A stretch of 64,000 nucleotides of DNA, from IMG/VR virus record IMGVR_UViG_3300027126_000006, one strand, 5' to 3'. Of the stretch, positions 780 to 9,832 are shown piece after piece. The notes beneath the pieces were generated by a model, which saw only the letters and a program-made list of their open reading frames with translations, was not told where the DNA came from and did not search any database. Source of the DNA: a virus. A program made the position numbers and the translations under genes. Within the stretch, counting starts at the first letter, position 1. Every line of letters begins with the position of its first letter.

Positions 780-1301
780 TCACTTGTTGTGGTATTTTGC
801 TTCATCAGGCTTTGCTTGGCCCGACTTATCAAATCCATACGACCCATTATATTCATGCATCATCTCAGCATTGAAGCTGAGGTACTGTCCGATCCGTGTT
901 CCTTGTTTGATCTTGGCAGGCCCAACAGTTACATGAAGGACGCCAGCCATTGTACCATGGTAACCTGAATCATACAACCCCGATGTTAGATATAGACCGT
1001 TGCGATTTAGAGTCGACCTGGTGATCACCCACCCAGCTTCATTCTCTCCGACTTTGATGATGTTCTCCATTACAACTTCATAGTGACCAATCTCGAGATA
1101 AAAATACCCATCTTTATCTGCAATCAACTCACGGCCACCACGATGTTTTTTATGTTCATTCGAAATCTCGAAAATATTCTCATCGTTAATTTTAAACACT
1201 TTACCTAAACGTAGATCTACAGCATTAGGCTGCACATCTTCATTCTGAACTTCCGTGAGAGAAGATTTAGAATTAGGTCCCATAATATGTTTCATGCTCA
1301 C
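780..1301 (-). CDS. Trimeric dUTPase / dCTP-deaminase fold enzyme
   Basis: QPNAVDLRL, RSTLNRNG, DSGYHG motifs; no Glu at the position of the Dcd catalytic Glu after GY.G. Confidence 0.8.
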   Translation of the reverse strand: MSMKHIMGPNSKSSLTEVQNEDVQPNAVDLRLGKVFKINDENIFEISNEHKKHRGGRELIADKDGYFYLEIGHYEVVMENIIKVGENEAGWVITRSTLNRNGLYLTSGLYDSGYHGTMAGVLHVTVGPAKIKQGTRIGQYLSFNAEMMHEYNGSYGFDKSGQAKPDEAKYHNK

Positions 1302-1882
1302 TCCTTTACTAAGGCAACTGTTTGTAAAATTTTATGCATCTCTTGTACTGCTAGTTGGTTATACTGATCCAGTGTTAGATCGACATTGTTAATGATGCTG
1401 TGACACAGTTCATCAGGGAACTCAGTCTCTGTTACATGGCCATCAAATGCCACGCCTCCTCGTTTGATCTTAACAATGATTCCATCAAGTCGTTTGGTGA
1501 TTGATTCCAGTTCATTATGAAACCGCAAGTCAGTGATGCACCAAATCCCTGTACGATCTCGATTGATAGTATCTTCCACATATCTAACAAACTGCTGTTC
1601 GTCAAATGATCGCATCATCATTCCAATCTCGCGAACAACACGTCGACCATCAACAGAATGAGTTAGGTATCCTGGAAGTTGGTAGTCAACTTTCGTTCGC
1701 TTGAATGCATCATATTGTTCTTCGGTTACAAGATCGAAGATACGAGACACCTCGATTTTGATTGGATCAGCATATGCAATCTTACGCACTTGCAGTTGAG
1801 GAAAGGCATCTTTTACAGCCCTGTAAAACTGGTCTTTACCAGATCCTTTTGCTCCATGTAATCCAATCACCAACCCCATCAT
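1298..1882 (-). CDS. Deoxynucleoside monophosphate kinase (T4 gp1-like)
   Basis: IGLHGAKGSGKD P-loop, YADPIK, ITDLRFHNE, H.TE motifs. Confidence 0.88.
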   Translation of the reverse strand: MMGLVIGLHGAKGSGKDQFYRAVKDAFPQLQVRKIAYADPIKIEVSRIFDLVTEEQYDAFKRTKVDYQLPGYLTHSVDGRRVVREIGMMMRSFDEQQFVRYVEDTINRDRTGIWCITDLRFHNELESITKRLDGIIVKIKRGGVAFDGHVTETEFPDELCHSIINNVDLTLDQYNQLAVQEMHKILQTVALVKE

Positions 1883-2751
1883 TCACCTCTACACAATTTG
1901 TCAACTAGTCCCATATTATAGTTGATGTCCTTTTGGCTTTCAACTTTATCTGATAGCGAAATATCAAAATCCACTTCTTTTTCAAATTTACCAAATCGAA
2001 GACCAGTTGGACTATTGTCGTATCGGATTCCAGCTAGTGCATGCCATACAGCAGTTGAGCTGTCCCACGAGAAGATGTGGTTATGATATTCGCGAACCAA
2101 AGAAATCTCACGTGGACCATCGGTCATTCCTAGACAATGAAACCTTTTCCGTGTGGCTGGCCCAAGAAGACCACGAGACTTCAGCTCTTCGAAGATAGCC
2201 CAACGAGACAGATACCGTTGCATCATATAACCATCATCTCGTACCTGATGAGGACTGTGCTTAGTTTCATTGACACCAAGAGCAATTGGACATGCGAGGA
2301 TAGAAACACCAATGTAATCTACATCTGGATTGTTGATAGCCCACTCAAACCCTTTCATCAGACCATCAAGATCTCCGAGAGATGATTGAGGGCAGAAGAA
2401 TGTTTTGAAACCAGCTTTCTTAAATTTCGGAGCAAGTTCTTGCGCCTTGTCTGTAGTTTTCATCCAATGGTGCTTCGGATAATCCGTCATCACAATAGAA
2501 TCAGCACTAACCAGTTTACCCATCTCGATCAACTTATCTGATGGGTACATATCAACCCCTCGCTTGAACATCTCGAATGCTGAGTTGTCAAGATGATAAA
2601 CTACATTTGGATTGTCTCGTTTGAGCTGAGCATAGAACTCACGATACTCCTTGTTCTCTTCTACAAGATGTGCTAGAAGAAGATGAACTGGATATGACCT
2701 CACGAGAGGAAGATATGATACAGGTACAATATGACAAAAATTAATCATCAC
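1879..2751 (-). CDS. tRNA-guanine-transglycosylase-like TIM barrel (DpdA-family, divergent)
   Basis: LDNSAFE (cf. TGT DSGGFQ), HCLG, WDSSTAVW motifs; sits in the folE/queD/queE cluster. Confidence 0.7.
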   Translation of the reverse strand: MMINFCHIVPVSYLPLVRSYPVHLLLAHLVEENKEYREFYAQLKRDNPNVVYHLDNSAFEMFKRGVDMYPSDKLIEMGKLVSADSIVMTDYPKHHWMKTTDKAQELAPKFKKAGFKTFFCPQSSLGDLDGLMKGFEWAINNPDVDYIGVSILACPIALGVNETKHSPHQVRDDGYMMQRYLSRWAIFEELKSRGLLGPATRKRFHCLGMTDGPREISLVREYHNHIFSWDSSTAVWHALAGIRYDNSPTGLRFGKFEKEVDFDISLSDKVESQKDINYNMGLVDKLCRGE

Positions 2752-3137
2752 ACAACCTCATAGTGTTTCACACAACCGTTTTCATTGTCCTCAGCAACGG
2801 AGATGATGAAACAACGATCGGGATATTTCGCATGAATGCTTTCAGCAATGTCGTCTGCAATCATCTCGCAGCTCTTGTAGTTTAGCTCGAGGATACCATC
2901 ATCAAAAAGACGCTCTAGCCAACGCTTAAACTGGATAAACTCCACATCACGATCGTCGTGGAACACATCAAGTTCAACACGGAAGTGGAAAATGTGTCGA
3001 TGTGGTGTTCCTAGAAAACTAACATCATCCCAGCCACCAGTCTTCAGTTTAGGATCTGTTGCTGCAGCTGGGTAGCAATGGATCCCTTCCTTTTGGAAGG
3101 TAACCCAAATACGATTACGTTTCACGATATAACTCAT
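2748..3137 (-). CDS. QueD paralogue (T-fold), DpdL-like candidate CDG decarboxylase
   Basis: LGTPHRHIF (LxxxHRHxF) replaces the QueD CxxxHGH motif; SCEMIA and C-terminal V.ED.ENG T-fold motifs. Confidence 0.72.
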   Translation of the reverse strand: MSYIVKRNRIWVTFQKEGIHCYPAAATDPKLKTGGWDDVSFLGTPHRHIFHFRVELDVFHDDRDVEFIQFKRWLERLFDDGILELNYKSCEMIADDIAESIHAKYPDRCFIISVAEDNENGCVKHYEVV

Positions 3138-3149
3138 TACAATTCCTTT

Positions 3150-3836
3150 TTATTTTGGTAGACGCGCAATATTCAAAAATTCACGTCGAATGTCTGAATT
3201 GGCTTCAGCAAACACTCCTCGTGTTGATAGTGTGACAGTCGATGATCCTGTATCTTGAATACCTCGACTTTTAACACAGTAATGTGATGCATCAACATAT
3301 ACAGCAACATCAGGTGAGTCGGTGATGAAGCTAATAGTTTCACAGATCTGTTCTGTTAGACGCTCTTGCACTTGTGGTCGTTTAGCAAAGAACTCCACGA
3401 TTCGATTGAGCTTGGATAGACCAAGAACTTTCTTATGTGGAATGTATGCTACAGTTGCAAGACCATCAATTACTACAAAGTGATGTTCACAATTAGATTG
3501 TACATTAATATTACGCTCTAACACAAATGAATCTTTGTAATCCATCTTGTTGTCGATTGCAGTACATTTTGGAAACTTTGAGTAGTCCAATCCCCAAAAG
3601 ATTTCATTGACATACATTTTTGCAACACGGTTGGGTGTGTCGATCAACGAGTCGTCAGTGAGATCCAATCCTAGGATTTCCATGATCTTAGTAAAGTGAG
3701 GAACAATCTCTTTGATCTTTGCTTCAGAAGAAGCAGACACCATATCAGTGATTGGCGTTTCGATACCTTTAGATACTAGGTGACGATGGACTGCCATACC
3801 AAGTTCGGCATTACTCTTATGTGCTGGATGTGACAT
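3150..3836 (-). CDS. folE: GTP cyclohydrolase I
   Basis: TPNRVAKMY, CEHH, GLSKLNRIV, RPQVQERLT, HYCVKSRG. Confidence 0.97.
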   Translation of the reverse strand: MSHPAHKSNAELGMAVHRHLVSKGIETPITDMVSASSEAKIKEIVPHFTKIMEILGLDLTDDSLIDTPNRVAKMYVNEIFWGLDYSKFPKCTAIDNKMDYKDSFVLERNINVQSNCEHHFVVIDGLATVAYIPHKKVLGLSKLNRIVEFFAKRPQVQERLTEQICETISFITDSPDVAVYVDASHYCVKSRGIQDTGSSTVTLSTRGVFAEANSDIRREFLNIARLPK

Positions 3837-3849
3837 TTTTATTTCCTAT

Positions 3850-3917
3850 CTTGACCATTCAGGTTCGTGTGTAGTATCGCAGAGGTGGAATGGTCAAGGA
3901 CGGACCCTACGATACTA
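3850..3917 (-). ncRNA. Candidate cis-regulatory pseudoknot / two-state RNA switch in the folE leader
   Basis: P1 3917-3905/3884-3872 (13 bp, 2 G.U) interleaved with P2 3898-3888/3860-3850 (11 bp perfect); ends 2 nt before AGGA SD. Confidence 0.6.
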
Positions 3918-3921
3918 TGAA

Positions 3922-4218
3922 TCATTTCTTCGGTGGTTTAGGAGGAAGGTTGGGATATGTACCCCAAGGAACCTTCATCCAATCATCTAAACTAATATTT
4001 TGAATTGGATCTTCAATCCACATTTTAGATATACAATAGTAGCAAAATTTATCCCAGATGAACATTCTAACTTTCGTATGATCGTCGTCGAATGCACCTG
4101 CCTCAGTCATCCAAGTGTGAGATGGGATCTCACGAACATATAGGTTAGCTTTGATCCCTTCTACTATACATTGAATTTTGTCAGAAGACAACTGTCCCAT
4201 TACATTTTCTCCCACCAA
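3922..4218 (-). CDS. Hypothetical protein in the deazaguanine cluster
   Basis: ORF tightly packed between PRTase and folE; start may be the downstream ATG near 4200. Confidence 0.6.
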   Translation of the reverse strand: MVGENVMGQLSSDKIQCIVEGIKANLYVREIPSHTWMTEAGAFDDDHTKVRMFIWDKFCYYCISKMWIEDPIQNISLDDWMKVPWGTYPNLPPKPPKK

Positions 4219-4649
4219 AAGTCAAAATACCTCTTCTCCAGTGTGCGAGTGAATGGGGTACCAAAGTAATGGTCAACTCCCATCTTCACGTCCGTGTTGT
4301 GAAGGAGTGTTGCAAGGGATGTATGACAGAAGATCTGAGATGTGTTGCACACCCATTGAACTGTCTTACCGCTATCGATTAGGTCATCTACAACCAAGAT
4401 CCTAAAGAACTTTTCACTCAAGTTTTCAAAGTACTGGTATAAGTTCAGATCAGTAGTAACACCATCTCGTGTAGATAAGTTAAGCATTGTTGCCGGGATG
4501 CCCATCTTATGGGATAACGCTACTGCTGGAATACATCCACCTCGAGTCAACCCTACGATGATATCAAACTTTCGTGATCCAATATTTTCGACGATTGTAT
4601 TGATGTCCCTTGTAAACCTTTCAAAAGTATAAAGAATGTGGTCCATCAC
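4200..4649 (-). CDS. Type I purine phosphoribosyltransferase (Gpt-like)
   Basis: IVGLTRGGCIPA and the PRPP-binding loop ILVVDDLIDSGKT; C-terminal FWWE. Confidence 0.88.
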   Translation of the reverse strand: MMDHILYTFERFTRDINTIVENIGSRKFDIIVGLTRGGCIPAVALSHKMGIPATMLNLSTRDGVTTDLNLYQYFENLSEKFFRILVVDDLIDSGKTVQWVCNTSQIFCHTSLATLLHNTDVKMGVDHYFGTPFTRTLEKRYFDFWWEKM

Positions 4650-5152
4650 TGATCACCAAACAGATCTTCGTTCCACTCTCGATGACCTTCGCGGAAAGCC
4701 ATATTGGCTTGAGTCTCTCGAACTTCTACTCGGAAGCACCACAACCGCTCGGCTTCTCCAGGGCCCCAATAGTCTGGGATGTACACTCCATTGACAAACT
4801 TATATAGTTGATCTGCCAGTCCTTCACACCCAAGCCTCGGGAGGATAGTTAGCTTAGCCATCTTCTTTTCTTGAAGGAGCAAGTAAGTTTCTAGCTCAGG
4901 ATCGTCTTCTGCCACAAGTAGTGTATGATCAAACTGATCTTGAAGGATCTCTTTGAGGTCTTTAAGACCACCATAGTCTGCTGCCCAATTGCGAACATCG
5001 AGATCGTTAGTGCCAAAGTAAAACTTCATCGAAAAACTATAACCGTGAATCAGGTTGCAATGCGAGTCTGCTCTCCACTGCCTATAAGCACAAGGAAATG
5101 CATCCACATACTCCTTTGTGCTGACAAACTTATATGTTACTGGTTGAACCAT
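4646..5152 (-). CDS. queD: 6-carboxytetrahydropterin synthase (QueD, variant motif)
   Basis: SHCNLIHGY, DYGGLK, FDH, CEGLA, VRET; start at ATG 5152 with GGAG SD. Confidence 0.85.
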   Translation of the reverse strand: MVQPVTYKFVSTKEYVDAFPCAYRQWRADSHCNLIHGYSFSMKFYFGTNDLDVRNWAADYGGLKDLKEILQDQFDHTLLVAEDDPELETYLLLQEKKMAKLTILPRLGCEGLADQLYKFVNGVYIPDYWGPGEAERLWCFRVEVRETQANMAFREGHREWNEDLFGDQ

Positions 5153-5163
5153 ATTGCACTCCA

Positions 5164-6042
5164 TTATTTACCAATCGCGTTTCCAAAAATATGTACATGA
5201 GCTCGAGTAGAATAGTTGAACCCTCGCTCGATTGATTGTTCGGCGATCGCCGCTTCTGTAACTTTCAATCCTTCAAGAGTGCCTCCAATACCCATAATCC
5301 AAATATCCCAGTTAACGTCAACTTCTCGGAATAAGGAGATTACTTCGTCAAGCTCATCCCATGCAGCTCGACTACCATTGACGACAAACTTAAGCTGTCC
5401 TTTCGAACTCGCCTTCATATACTTAGCAACATTCTCCGGTTTGATAGCCTTACTTCTCTTCTCTCCTGCTACATTCCATAGTTTAGGAGAAATCGACCAC
5501 ATCCATTCAACACCATGCTCATTACGCAATTCCTGGATTAGGTTGAATAGAGGTTCACTAAGAGTTTGAGTGCCATTTGACTCAACAGTAATGAACTTTG
5601 GAATGTTACCTCGATCAATGAATTCAGTTAGCAGCTCAACAATTGCTTTCTGATTCTGTTTCATTAGAGGCTCGCCACCAGTGATACAAAGATGTGTTTC
5701 TTGACCACTTCGTGCATGTTTAAACTTACCAGTAGGAAGTTTACTTTCTAGCTCATCGACTGCTTCGACAGCAGTCTTATCATGCATCAGGTGTTTAAAC
5801 CTCGAGCTCCAAGTGTATGATGAATCACATCCCTTTTCGAATACAGGGAGATCCTCTACACGAGTGATGTTGCTAATATCGATCTTCTCGTATGGAAGAT
5901 CCCATGTATCTGGTTCAGTGGGACAGCTCTGCCCAAAACCATCGCACTGAAGATTACAAAGAAAGAATCTAATCCACAACGACGATACACCACAATACAT
6001 ACCCTCCCCTTGTGGGGAGTAAAAGGTCTCAGAATATTTCAC
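5164..6042 (-). CDS. queE: 7-carboxy-7-deazaguanine synthase (radical SAM)
   Basis: ETFYSPQGEG, CNLQC...CDSSY, ITGGEP, ESNGT, SISPK, QLKFVV, R.H..IFG. Confidence 0.93.
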   Translation of the reverse strand: MKYSETFYSPQGEGMYCGVSSLWIRFFLCNLQCDGFGQSCPTEPDTWDLPYEKIDISNITRVEDLPVFEKGCDSSYTWSSRFKHLMHDKTAVEAVDELESKLPTGKFKHARSGQETHLCITGGEPLMKQNQKAIVELLTEFIDRGNIPKFITVESNGTQTLSEPLFNLIQELRNEHGVEWMWSISPKLWNVAGEKRSKAIKPENVAKYMKASSKGQLKFVVNGSRAAWDELDEVISLFREVDVNWDIWIMGIGGTLEGLKVTEAAIAEQSIERGFNYSTRAHVHIFGNAIGK

Positions 6043-6209
6043 ACAAGCTCCTCAATGATCCCAACCGCTTCTGCTAGAACTAGTAGCACACCAGCCCATA
6101 CAAATGGGCCACCAACAAGGATTAGTATACCACCAGCCGCAAACCTAAATCCACTTTTAATAAAGCTGACATAGGCATGTAGATTAGGGTTGGGTTGTTT
6201 AAATTTCAT
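6039..6209 (-). CDS. Small two-TM membrane protein (56 aa; below the ORF-track cutoff)
   Basis: Manual translation MKFKQPNPNLHAYVSFIKSGFRFAAGGILILVGGPFVWAGVLLVLAEAVGIIEELV; GAGG SD; stop overlaps the queE GTG start. Confidence 0.8.
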   Translation of the reverse strand: MKFKQPNPNLHAYVSFIKSGFRFAAGGILILVGGPFVWAGVLLVLAEAVGIIEELV

Positions 6210-7442: not shown

Positions 7443-9527
7443 TTACGCAACGCTGTCGATGAATTTTGACAGTAGAACCCGAGAGGTTTTCTTGGTAGTC
7501 AGGTACTTCGTAAACTGCTTTGCGATAGTCCGAGTAGAGGCCTTTTCGCTGATGTTCATCTCATCATAATTGATCTTCGTAGTCGTAGCTGCAATCAAGA
7601 ACATCTTGTCACGATTAGTGCCTTGCAAAGATACAAAACCATCTTGGCGAAGTTTAGTCCGAACTTCCTCTGTCCTATTCCACGACTGCTGACGAGAAAT
7701 GTCAGGGTAGTGACTGAGGATTGCATCCATCACATCGCGCCGGCGATTCGGAAGAACATAAAATCCCATGATGACACAATTGTGACGGTCCTTAATCATC
7801 TGAATCAGAGTTTCAGTTTGAGCTGCTGCAGGATATGTCGGCCAATTATATACTTTACGTGTGCGCTCATCCGTCACACAATGTTTAAGTGCAACTCGAC
7901 GCTGACGACCCTCTGCATCAAGTTTATATTTAAAATCATCTTGGCGGTCTAGAATTCCACCCTCTCCATCGCTGAATGTAATCAGAGTCGTTTTCTCTAC
8001 ACGATACTTCTTGTGGAATGAATCGAGGTAGGTGTTGTAGAGATACAGTAGAGCTTCGTTAAGCGGAGTACCACCAAGACCGTACTCTCGACGCAGTCTA
8101 CGGCTACGGACAAGCATTGACATTGAAGTGAAGTCTGTGTTTGACATTTCGCTGCTAAACAGCTCGAGAAGTGAGAACCCCGATGTATTCGGATTGATAT
8201 CGGTATTACCATGTCGACTAGCTTCGACATTCGCACGTCGAATTACCTCCATGTTGAGCACGCTAGAATGATTGCTGAACGCAACAACCGAATGGCGGAT
8301 ACCAGCACGGCGACAGAATGTAACGAGGTTGATCAATTGATCAACAGTGTCGTCGAGGTGATCCATCATTGATCCAGACCAGTCCAACAGAAACACCATT
8401 CCATGGTTCTTGCCTTCAGGTACAGTGGCAACCTTACGGAAGATATCATCGCTCAACTTATACCGCCACACTTTATTCATATCCAGTGATCCGGATTTAG
8501 TAATCTGCGTTCGTTTATAACTGCTCGCAGCTTTCTTCATCTCGAATTCTTTGACGAGGTAGTTGACGTTGTTGTCTGTATTCTGACGGAATGATCGATA
8601 CGCCGTCACAATTTCAGAGTCTCGAGTAACAGGAGTATCGTAACTCACTTCAACGCGAGAGATGATCTGTTTGTATCCAATAACCGGATCATACTCGAGT
8701 GGCACAAACTTGTGGTAGACGTGTTCAGTATTACCATCGACAGTCATCTTCAGCGATTGTGCAAACGCCTCGTTGGTAACAGGTTGAACATCATCTTCTT
8801 TCGCATCTTCTCCAATGTCTTCATTTCCAGATCCCGAAGATGGCTCACCATCTTCATCCTCTTGATCATCCTCCTCTTCTTGCCCCATATCCTCTCGATC
8901 ACCTGACATCGAGGTACCATTTTCTTCGTCTTCGTCCCCAAACTGAGGTTGGGGATCAGGCTGCAATTCGGGTTGACGATTCTCCTGGAGGTAACCATAC
9001 AGCTCTCGCGCCAGGTCAATTACCTCAGGAAGAGTTTCAAGGCGTTCAGCCTTCTCGACGAAGTAAAGCTCAGCTTCCGTAAATTTAATTGGAGTACGAT
9101 AGCCCAACTTGAAGTGGAGGTTGATTCGATCAGCGAGATTCAACTGATCGACATCCACATTGCCGATCTTAAAGAAATCTCGCTCGTGGAGCATATTGTA
9201 TGCCGTGTTGAATACACGACGAAGACCGATGTACTTGTTTTTGATCAGTTTCTCGATGCGAGCATCCTCGAGAATGTTCATGCACCCAGCAAGATTGGGC
9301 TCTTTCTTAGCAGCGTCGACATACAGCTCATCTGTATACAGAGCATGGCCAACCTCATGAGCAACAAGCAGCTCATCTACGATGGGAGGGAGGTCCTTCC
9401 AGAACGGAAGGATCAGAGTACGGTTAATGATATCAAACGCAGCAGTTTCGACTGTGTCTCGAACTACGTTGATGTTCTCGTTGGCCAAGAGCTTGGCCAC
9501 TAGCTGTAGCGATTGCTGTTCGTTCAT
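7443..9527 (-). CDS. CobT-like protein: N-terminal HExxH metallopeptidase-like domain, acidic linker, vWA domain
   Basis: HEVGH...NILEDARIE; LDWSGSM MIDAS, GGTP, SDGEG; partner of the adjacent AAA+. Confidence 0.88.
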   Translation of the reverse strand: MNEQQSLQLVAKLLANENINVVRDTVETAAFDIINRTLILPFWKDLPPIVDELLVAHEVGHALYTDELYVDAAKKEPNLAGCMNILEDARIEKLIKNKYIGLRRVFNTAYNMLHERDFFKIGNVDVDQLNLADRINLHFKLGYRTPIKFTEAELYFVEKAERLETLPEVIDLARELYGYLQENRQPELQPDPQPQFGDEDEENGTSMSGDREDMGQEEEDDQEDEDGEPSSGSGNEDIGEDAKEDDVQPVTNEAFAQSLKMTVDGNTEHVYHKFVPLEYDPVIGYKQIISRVEVSYDTPVTRDSEIVTAYRSFRQNTDNNVNYLVKEFEMKKAASSYKRTQITKSGSLDMNKVWRYKLSDDIFRKVATVPEGKNHGMVFLLDWSGSMMDHLDDTVDQLINLVTFCRRAGIRHSVVAFSNHSSVLNMEVIRRANVEASRHGNTDINPNTSGFSLLELFSSEMSNTDFTSMSMLVRSRRLRREYGLGGTPLNEALLYLYNTYLDSFHKKYRVEKTTLITFSDGEGGILDRQDDFKYKLDAEGRQRRVALKHCVTDERTRKVYNWPTYPAAAQTETLIQMIKDRHNCVIMGFYVLPNRRRDVMDAILSHYPDISRQQSWNRTEEVRTKLRQDGFVSLQGTNRDKMFLIAATTTKINYDEMNISEKASTRTIAKQFTKYLTTKKTSRVLLSKFIDSVA

Positions 9528-9832
9528 TTCGTATTCAGAGTGGGATTGTAGAGGGCGATGAGCTCTCGCTCGCGTTGATGAGCAGCCTTGCGACCACGGA
9601 CGACTTCAATCACTGCATACTCGAGCTCAGGATCAGTGCGAAGGAATTCCGCAAACTTCCAATCCTTGGTCAGTCGCCGAGCTTTCGATTGATGGTTCTG
9701 CAGTCGAATCTTCACTGATTTGAGGTAGGCTTGGCCTCGAGCCACAGTCAAGCCGATGTATGTATCCCCAGTGGTCGGGCAGTGGATGCCGTAGATCACA
9801 TGGTTTCTGTCTGAGCGTTTTTTCCGATTCAT
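9524..9832 (-). CDS. Small GIY-YIG family endonuclease
   Basis: VIYGI...YIGLT, R...H, ERELI, LN motifs. Confidence 0.82.
   Translation of the reverse strand: MNRKKRSDRNHVIYGIHCPTTGDTYIGLTVARGQAYLKSVKIRLQNHQSKARRLTKDWKFAEFLRTDPELEYAVIEVVRGRKAAHQRERELIALYNPTLNTK

Follow-up and report, generated by a model that had tools for sequence, protein, structure and literature searches.

A Gpt-like purine phosphoribosyltransferase linked to FolE in phage 7-deazaguanine DNA modification clusters

The 64,000-nucleotide viral DNA of IMG/VR record IMGVR_UViG_3300027126_000006 (hereafter the window, meaning this whole stretch) carries, between queD and folE of a 7-deazaguanine cluster, a gene for a Gpt-like type I purine phosphoribosyltransferase (PRT). 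Linkage of such PRTs to deazaguanine clusters was found to be real and general, and the PRT, which adds a member to a known fold, is an optional accessory of a phage DNA-modification system already described. The reading that we tentatively favour, with a confidence falling a little short of even, is that it recycles guanine to GMP to feed FolE, as an optional helper of the 7-deazaguanine DNA system. Phage 7-deazaguanine systems have been described as FolE, QueD, QueE, (QueC) and a DpdA transglycosylase, with a purine PRT as an unlisted component; the string 'phosphoribosyl' has 0 occurrences in the two key papers on phage deazaguanine DNA, in agreement with an earlier note on this DNA, which knew of no PRT as a defined Dpd component, and the association is apparently unpublished in the searched literature.

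Gene, family and predicted fold of the PRT

4200..4649, minus strand: PRT, Gpt-like type I purine phosphoribosyltransferase (PF00156, phrog_8995, PDB matches 1vdm and 7kl6, AlphaFold (AF2) model, Foldseek, 23 homologues)

The open reading frame (ORF) encodes 149 aa from a GTG codon or 148 aa from an ATG at 4646-4644, and the ATG is probably the true start because homologues begin MD or MN. The queD stop TGA (4648-4646) lies inside GTGATG, giving a queD/PRT overlap of 4 nt with the GTG start or 1 nt with the ATG start, and the last base of the PRT stop codon (TAA, 4202-4200) is also the first base of an in-frame ATG in the downstream orf98, as TAATG; with stops and starts overlapping in this way, QueD, PRT and orf98 are translationally coupled. 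A spurious overlapping ORF was considered and ruled out by conservation, a confident predicted fold and the presence of all catalytic motifs.

The PRT matched Pfam PF00156 (Pribosyltran; E 2.8e-9, 36.9 bits, gathering cut-off 26.3) and phrog_8995 ('phosphoribosyl transferase'; E 3.7e-15). The best NCBIfam model was xanthine PRT NF006613 (E 1.8e-10, 40.6 bits, below its 138-bit cut-off), and the hypoxanthine-guanine PRT (HGPRT) model TIGR01203 gave 15.5 bits (below its 150-bit cut-off); on these scores the protein is no orthologue of Gpt, though Gpt-like in fold. The AF2 model had a mean predicted local distance difference test score (pLDDT) of 91.7, and its top Foldseek matches were all small 6-oxopurine PRTs at probability 1.0 and template modelling (TM) scores of 0.6-0.74, namely P. 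horikoshii 1VDM, the hypoxanthine-guanine-xanthine enzyme (HGXPRT) of S. solfataricus, the xanthine-guanine-hypoxanthine enzyme (XGHPRT) 7KL6 of H. pylori, and the xanthine-guanine enzymes (XGPRT) of E. coli and Yersinia. A type I PRT core with a pyrophosphate (PPi) loop and a hood was recognised from the AF2 model, the Foldseek matches and the invariant RGG, and the family profile aligned end to end with 7KL6, including WIDFFWEV against YFDFWWE. The earlier note had described a Gpt-like type I PRT overlapping the queD stop inside a deazaguanine cluster: the ORF, the GTGATG overlap and the family matches bear this out, the structural matches and conserved motifs make the Gpt-like label an accurate one, and the neighbouring genes for QueE, QueD, FolE, DpdL and DpdA3 confirm the setting.

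Public data yielded 23 homologous proteins at 45-89% identity. The 5-phosphoribosyl 1-pyrophosphate (PRPP) motif ILVVDDLIDSGKT was located at residues 84-96, with D88, D89, D92 and G94 invariant in 24 sequences, and in the alignment of the 23 homologues (alignment A1) the RGG PPi loop, the VDDLxDSG PRPP motif, the STRDG loop, HNTD and the C-terminal RYFDFWWE were also invariant. D92, three residues after the acidic pair, is invariant in the PRT subfamily, and almost every viral homologue has it; we take it to be the same Asp as D92 in E. coli Gpt and D137 in human HGPRT, with a role near purine N7. The position, on the strand after the PRPP motif, that presumably corresponds to K115 in Gpt, a Lys taken to bind exocyclic O6, is by alignment only an invariant Asn (LLHNTD) in the window PRT subfamily and in BUCT-ZZ01, and a Lys in H. 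pylori XGHPRT, phiST, immuto and the PRT::FolE fusions described below. C-terminal F144-W145-W146-E147 is invariant and aligns to the W-I-x-x-P-W / WIDFFWE of Gpt-type enzymes, which by alignment supplies the purine-stacking aromatic of the hood (W134 in Gpt). The STRDG catalytic loop, with its Arg, is invariant in the subfamily, whereas Gpt has a Ser-Tyr loop; PRTs associated with QueC-plus clusters have Gpt-like Ser-Tyr loops, but locus L004 is QueC-plus with TRDF, and locus L060 is DpdL-type but loop-less.

Set against the small 6-oxopurine PRTs (Gpt, PDB 1A95-98, 1NUL and 5XTK; 7KL6; 1VDM; 4Z1O), the window PRT has the same size of ~150 aa, and the core fold with hood, the RGG loop, VDDxxDxGxT and the C-terminal Trp are common to all. 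It differs from them in its identity of only 16-27%, in scores below the Gpt and HGPRT equivalog cut-offs, in having Asn for the O6-binding Lys and STRDG for the Ser-Tyr loop of Gpt, and in being phage-encoded and embedded in a deazaguanine pathway, with fusion in some relatives.

Linkage to FolE and distribution among phages

For a view of genomic context, IMG/VR was scanned by profile on PRT similarity alone, which gave 80 loci, reduced to 48 lineages at 80% identity, and 8 kb was retrieved; a scan of IMG/VR with the single PRT sequence gave no matches, and the profile scan found only relatives at up to 39% identity. FolE was present within 8 kb in 32 of the 48 viral lineages and QueE in 31, and FolE was adjacent or fused to the PRT in 26, including 15 in which both form a single PRT::FolE polypeptide with both domains confirmed by Pfam (for example L038:8010-9800, L044:7923-10700, L026:8001-8918 and L062:7899-8801). 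In the L038 and L044 fusions, inteins that carry HNH or LAGLIDADG endonuclease domains split the FolE half. The PRT domains of the fusions are compact and complete, keeping RGG, VDDLxDSGxT, the Lys and WIxxxWE, with only the long loop missing. QueE-PRT was the commonest gene order among viral PRT loci, and QueC was present in 18 of 42 PRT contigs, with QueC-minus/DpdL clusters also carrying a PRT.

As a control, bulk metagenomes were examined for PRT loci of at least 6 kb: among the matches listed, FolE or QueE lay near the PRT in 4 of 36 loci, those 4 being phage-like, cellular Gpt-like loci had no FolE or QueE linkage, and close relatives of the window PRT were absent. A tblastn search of 50,697 phage genomes (E up to 1) found PRT matches in only 14 records, comprising the Cellulophaga phiST group, Flavobacterium immuto phages, Synechococcus BUCT-ZZ01, two Brevundimonas phages and two uncultured phages. 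In the annotated cases examined, the PRT was always beside FolE or QueE or, in phiST, beside a deoxynucleoside monophosphate (dNMP) kinase and ribonucleotide reductase. Linkage to que/dpd genes in related genomes, which the earlier note had named as a check, is thus present, and FolE linkage and fusion are widespread.

The two characterised PRT-bearing phages both replace every G: phiST DNA carries 2'-deoxy-7-deazaguanosine (dDG) for every G, and immuto_2-6A carries fdPreQ1 (Table 1, PMC10516641). All five components of the phiST dDG system (FolE, QueD, QueE, DpdL and DpdA3; PMC10516641) are also found in the window, and phiST encodes a homologous PRT (CGPG_00045; 30% identity, E 1e-16; the immuto PRT is gp211), which is neither included nor mentioned in the published system (PMC10516641). 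In phiST, 17 kb separate the PRT from the que genes, and it sits beside the dNMP kinase and ribonucleotide reductase, whereas the window PRT sits between queD and folE, and the window phage, unlike phiST, is a marine T4-like myovirus.

Other phages have related systems and no detected PRT. No PF00156 gene was found at E up to 0.1 in CP220 (all G replaced by dADG, with DpdA3) or in ACP17 (with DpdL). Among the cultured phages whose module is most closely related to that of the window, Aeromonas phage Ahp1 and Vibrio phage D479 have a FolE-DpdL-DpdA3-dNMP kinase-Dcd-like block in the same order as the window (34-57% identity), while DpdL and DpdA3 are also present in Rhizobium RHph_I1_18 and Vibrio Bakedbeans; none of these four was among the PRT matches in the search of 50,697 phage genomes. 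The PRT is optional in deazaguanine systems, and the proposal that it is essential for complete G replacement was ruled out by CP220, which is without one.

Several of the retrieved loci have features of their own. In L024, which of the viral contigs has the greatest synteny with the window, a gene of the 3-deoxy-D-arabino-heptulosonate 7-phosphate (DAHP) synthase family (4422-5285) lies between queD and folE, and in L025, a 154-kb viral contig with DpdA3 and a Tmk-like kinase, the PRT is immediately preceded by two tandem QueC paralogues (3580-5120). A second DpdL cluster type, with no DpdA3 (BUCT-ZZ01, L001 9921-14603; L015 9266-15383; ACP17, L087 6698-8997), carries a conserved 416-456-aa protein without a Pfam match, a GT1-like glycosyltransferase and an Rv2179c-like exonuclease, and in the marine loci an NAD-dependent epimerase as well; the final base may be further decorated in these phages.

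Candidate roles of the PRT

From the observed fold and family, catalytic motifs, and linkage and fusion to FolE, we infer guanine as the substrate, together with its source and the benefit to the phage. In the proposed cycle, FolE, QueD and QueE would convert GTP to 7-carboxy-7-deazaguanine (CDG), DpdL would decarboxylate this to 7-deazaguanine, and DpdA3 would swap 7-deazaguanine in for guanine, each swap spending one GTP and freeing one guanine. The PRT would join the free guanine to PRPP to give GMP, and kinases would return this to GTP for FolE, closing a loop in which free guanine can return to GTP only by way of a PRT; the enzyme would also clear free guanine, which if left would rival the incoming base and build up to millimolar concentrations. 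For an illustrative estimate, assuming a 150-kb genome, the window's 42% GC, a burst of 25-100 and a 1-fL cell, 1.6-6.3 million guanines would be freed, a millimolar concentration in such a cell.

Guanine recycling is favoured because the PRT fuses to FolE, the GTP consumer and entry enzyme, and not to QueE or DpdL, and because most Gpt hallmarks are kept (RGG, the DDxxD motif and the C-terminal Trp). QueC-plus and QueC-minus pathways alike are accompanied by the PRT, so its substrate should be one that every pathway type shares, such as guanine, and its dispensability fits a helper that could be replaced by host Gpt or Hpt. Further support comes from PRT-bearing phiST and immuto, as these replace every G and guanine release should be largest there. 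If this reading is correct, a guanine-recycling loop would make complete replacement affordable, which bears on the 100% replacement seen in some phages. The PRT would also serve as a marker for predicting which phage genomes in metagenomes are fully substituted. The earlier note had offered two possibilities, the conversion of a deazapurine to its nucleotide and the recycling of guanine to feed FolE; the comparative data fit the second better.

Several points weigh against guanine recycling. The invariant Asn for the O6-binding Lys and the STRDG Arg could signal a changed substrate, for example a carboxylated base, although they could instead reflect mere phylogeny, given the L004 and L060 exceptions. 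Fusion to FolE is no proof of a guanine-to-GTP path because two kinase steps stand between the PRT and FolE, and QueE, the maker of CDG, is equally often the upstream neighbour of the PRT. Kinases and NTP hydrolases in the clusters further hint at nucleotide-level chemistry, and guanine activity is a prediction for every member of the PRT family.

A rather unlikely alternative, corresponding to the first possibility of the earlier note, is that the PRT is a TubE/ToyH-like deazapurine PRT that joins PRPP to CDG (or 7-deazaguanine) to give a ribonucleotide, after which decarboxylation by DpdL would take place on the nucleotide, 7-deaza-dGTP would enter the whole genome through the action of kinases, ribonucleotide reductase and polymerase, and a deoxynucleoside triphosphate (dNTP) hydrolase would remove dGTP. 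This has a biochemical precedent in TubE of the QueC-less tubercidin pathway, a proven CDG-specific PRT that uses CDG and PRPP and rejects 7-deazaguanine, decarboxylation following ribosylation (PMC6112128). TubE and ToyH (CDG and preQ0 PRTs, respectively, of Streptomyces tubercidin and toyocamycin pathways) are PF00156 PRTs beside FolE, QueD and QueE homologues, like the window PRT, and the TubE cluster is likewise QueC-less and CDG-terminating with a decarboxylase, a likeness known from cluster content only (bioRxiv 10.64898/2026.04.15.718813). The two systems differ in that TubE is 194 aa and its pathway proceeds through a UbiD decarboxylase, GMP reductase and Nudix hydrolase to a free nucleoside antibiotic, whereas the window cluster has a T-fold DpdL and a DpdA3 resembling tRNA-guanine transglycosylase (TGT), with DNA as the end point.

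The prevalence of the QueE-PRT order, the Lys-to-Asn change and the invariant Arg in the catalytic loop of the window subfamily, and the (d)NMP kinase and NTP hydrolase in the clusters are all compatible with such a deazapurine PRT, and a route through modified dGTP had at one time been put forward for Campylobacter phages. When DpdL and DpdA were co-expressed in E. coli no dDG was formed, and the authors point to a possible need for further enzymes (PMC10516641); the PRT bears on this failed DpdL/DpdA3 reconstitution also. Against these points stand the clusters of Ahp1, D479, RHph_I1_18, Bakedbeans and ACP17, together with fully substituted CP220, all without a PRT, so that the PRT cannot be an essential pathway step, and this weakens the proposal despite its precedent. 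The PRT moreover occurs with QueC-plus preQ0/preQ1 pathways, which would require several independent changes of specificity, the fusions join FolE and not QueE or DpdL, and DpdA3 would be left without a role. From the presence of transglycosylases in all phages of this kind, the 2023 paper on these systems concludes that the base is inserted after replication (PMC10516641).

DpdA3 itself nearly always has a P-loop (d)NMP kinase and an NTP hydrolase as neighbours, whose families vary between phages, with at least three or four unrelated families seen across the window, Ahp1, D479, phiST, immuto, CP220, L004, L025 and L030:

Window, Ahp1 and D479: gp1-like dNMP kinase; dUTPase/Dcd-like hydrolase
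phiST: AAA_18 kinase; MazG hydrolase
immuto, L004, L025, L030 and L031: Tmk-like kinase; PRA-PH (immuto) or Dcd-like hydrolase
CP220: P-loop protein and the P-loop half of an HD fusion; HD-domain hydrolase

The module lies at 780-2751 in the window, 5543-8036 in L168 (CP220), 9601-11763 in L083 (phiST) and 10398-13121 in L084 (immuto), and was also found in L169 and L170. A kinase paired with an NTP hydrolase is the signature of nucleotide-level replacement, as with gp56, gp42 and gp1 of T4 and with MazZ and PurZ of Z-genomes, and by this analogy the DpdA3 product may be a nucleotide. Because kinase and hydrolase flank DpdA3 in independent lineages, a T4-style scheme was considered, in which the hydrolase would convert dGTP to dGMP, DpdA3 would exchange the base on the mononucleotide, the kinase would lead to 7-deaza-dGTP and the PRT would recycle the guanine; we regard this as improbable, and equally so the assignment of its hydrolase to the dUTPase/Dcd-like protein here and to MazG, PRA-PH or HD proteins in other phages. 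In this way the PRT might open a nucleotide-level route, and the findings on it could be of use in the enzymatic production of 7-deaza nucleotides.

It also seems doubtful that the PRT serves generic purine salvage (of free guanine, hypoxanthine or xanthine, for example from host nucleic acid) in purine-poor marine hosts, lying near folE merely since nucleotide-metabolism genes cluster, or that it is a PRPP- or nucleotide-binding regulator of FolE: about a quarter of viral PRT lineages have no que gene within 8 kb, the phiST PRT is remote from its que genes, the ppGpp-binding PRT-fold protein 5vog is among the best structural matches and the fused domains lack the long catalytic loop, but these domains keep all catalytic motifs, adjacency or fusion to FolE is far above general clustering, with none at the cellular loci among the matches listed, and PRT matches among the phage genomes fall almost only in deazaguanine-cluster phages.

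The surrounding cluster in the window

All genes of the cluster are on the minus strand, in the order orf56, QueE, QueD, PRT, orf98, an 85-nt gap, FolE, DpdL (129 aa) and DpdA3 (290 aa), followed by a T4 gp1-like dNMP kinase, a dCTP-deaminase/dUTPase-fold protein and the gp45 clamp, with CobS/CobT, gp46/47, gp55 and T4-like structural genes farther out. The window gp46 is 46% identical to that of Methylophilales phage Melnitz and 45% to those of cyanomyophages, and the source is therefore taken to be an uncultured marine T4-like phage. The features other than the PRT are as follows:

6039..6209, minus strand: orf56, small hydrophobic ORF upstream of queE (tblastn and jackhmmer matches in L019, L022 and L023)
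5164..6042, minus strand: QueE-like radical SAM 7-carboxy-7-deazaguanine synthase (phrog_2076 E 8e-53, QueE NCBIfam models)
4646..5164, minus strand: QueD-like 6-carboxytetrahydropterin synthase (PF01242 E 4.8e-13, phrog_2389 E 1e-34)
3922..4218, minus strand: orf98, probable start ATG at 4200, coupled to the PRT stop
3850..3917, minus strand: two interleaved inverted repeats in the folE 5' leader, candidate pseudoknot or alternative hairpins
3150..3836, minus strand: FolE, GTP cyclohydrolase I (PF01227 E 1.7e-56, phrog_2197)
2748..3137, minus strand: DpdL, T-fold QueD paralogue, proposed CDG decarboxylase (motif L-GTP-HRH-I-F, phrog_17812)
1879..2751, minus strand: DpdA3-family TGT-like transglycosylase (E 2e-8 to phiST CGPG_00065)
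1298..1882, minus strand: T4 gp1-like deoxynucleoside monophosphate kinase (phrog_139 E 1.6e-27), overlapping the DpdA3 stop
780..1301, minus strand: dCTP deaminase/dUTPase-fold protein (PF22769; NF002598 E 1.5e-25, below cut-off; PDB 9w59)

By gene content, the window cluster is predicted to be a phiST-type 7-deazaguanine DNA system, since DpdL and DpdA3 are present and no QueC is found in the window (tblastn with three viral QueC seeds); QueF and MazG were likewise absent from the 64 kb. The window holds FolE, QueD, QueE, a DpdL with the signature motif defined as LxxxHRHxF (PMC10516641) and 32% identity (E 3e-14) to phiST CGPG_00067, and a DpdA3-family transglycosylase. Pfam TGT model PF01702 detected no phage DpdA, not even the annotated immuto one, and therefore a profile from the DpdA3 alignment (alignment A2; invariant LDN...PD...HxxG...D(T/S)S) served as the DpdA marker, finding CP220 DpdA3 at E 1e-62. 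The window DpdA3 was merged by jackhmmer with the phiST and immuto DpdA proteins and is 38-50% identical to Aeromonas, Vibrio and Rhizobium phage proteins. The window dNMP kinase is homologous to phiST CGPG_00044, the neighbour of the phiST PRT, and the gene at the equivalent position in Vibrio phage D479 is annotated as a dNMP kinase; the Dcd-like protein, a possible dNTP pyrophosphatase, is conserved beside DpdA3 or the PRT in 9 loci.

No homologue of orf98 was found in any retrieved locus. In the folE leader, the repeats pair 3850-3860 with 3888-3898 (perfect, 11 bp) and 3872-3882 with 3907-3917 (10/11), ending ~14 nt before the folE start, and their predicted topology is that of an H-type pseudoknot or two mutually exclusive hairpins; comparison with Rfam gave chance-level matches only, and the nested-fold minimum free energy z-score of -1.1 was unremarkable. 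Homologues of orf56 (47-49% identity) lie between QueE and the PRT at L019:6951-7127, L022:217-393 and L023:3692-3868, and orf56 may be a small conserved membrane protein of such clusters. Outside the cluster, a small GIY-YIG-domain ORF (9524-9832, minus strand), probably a homing endonuclease, lies between cobT and a DUF6011 protein.

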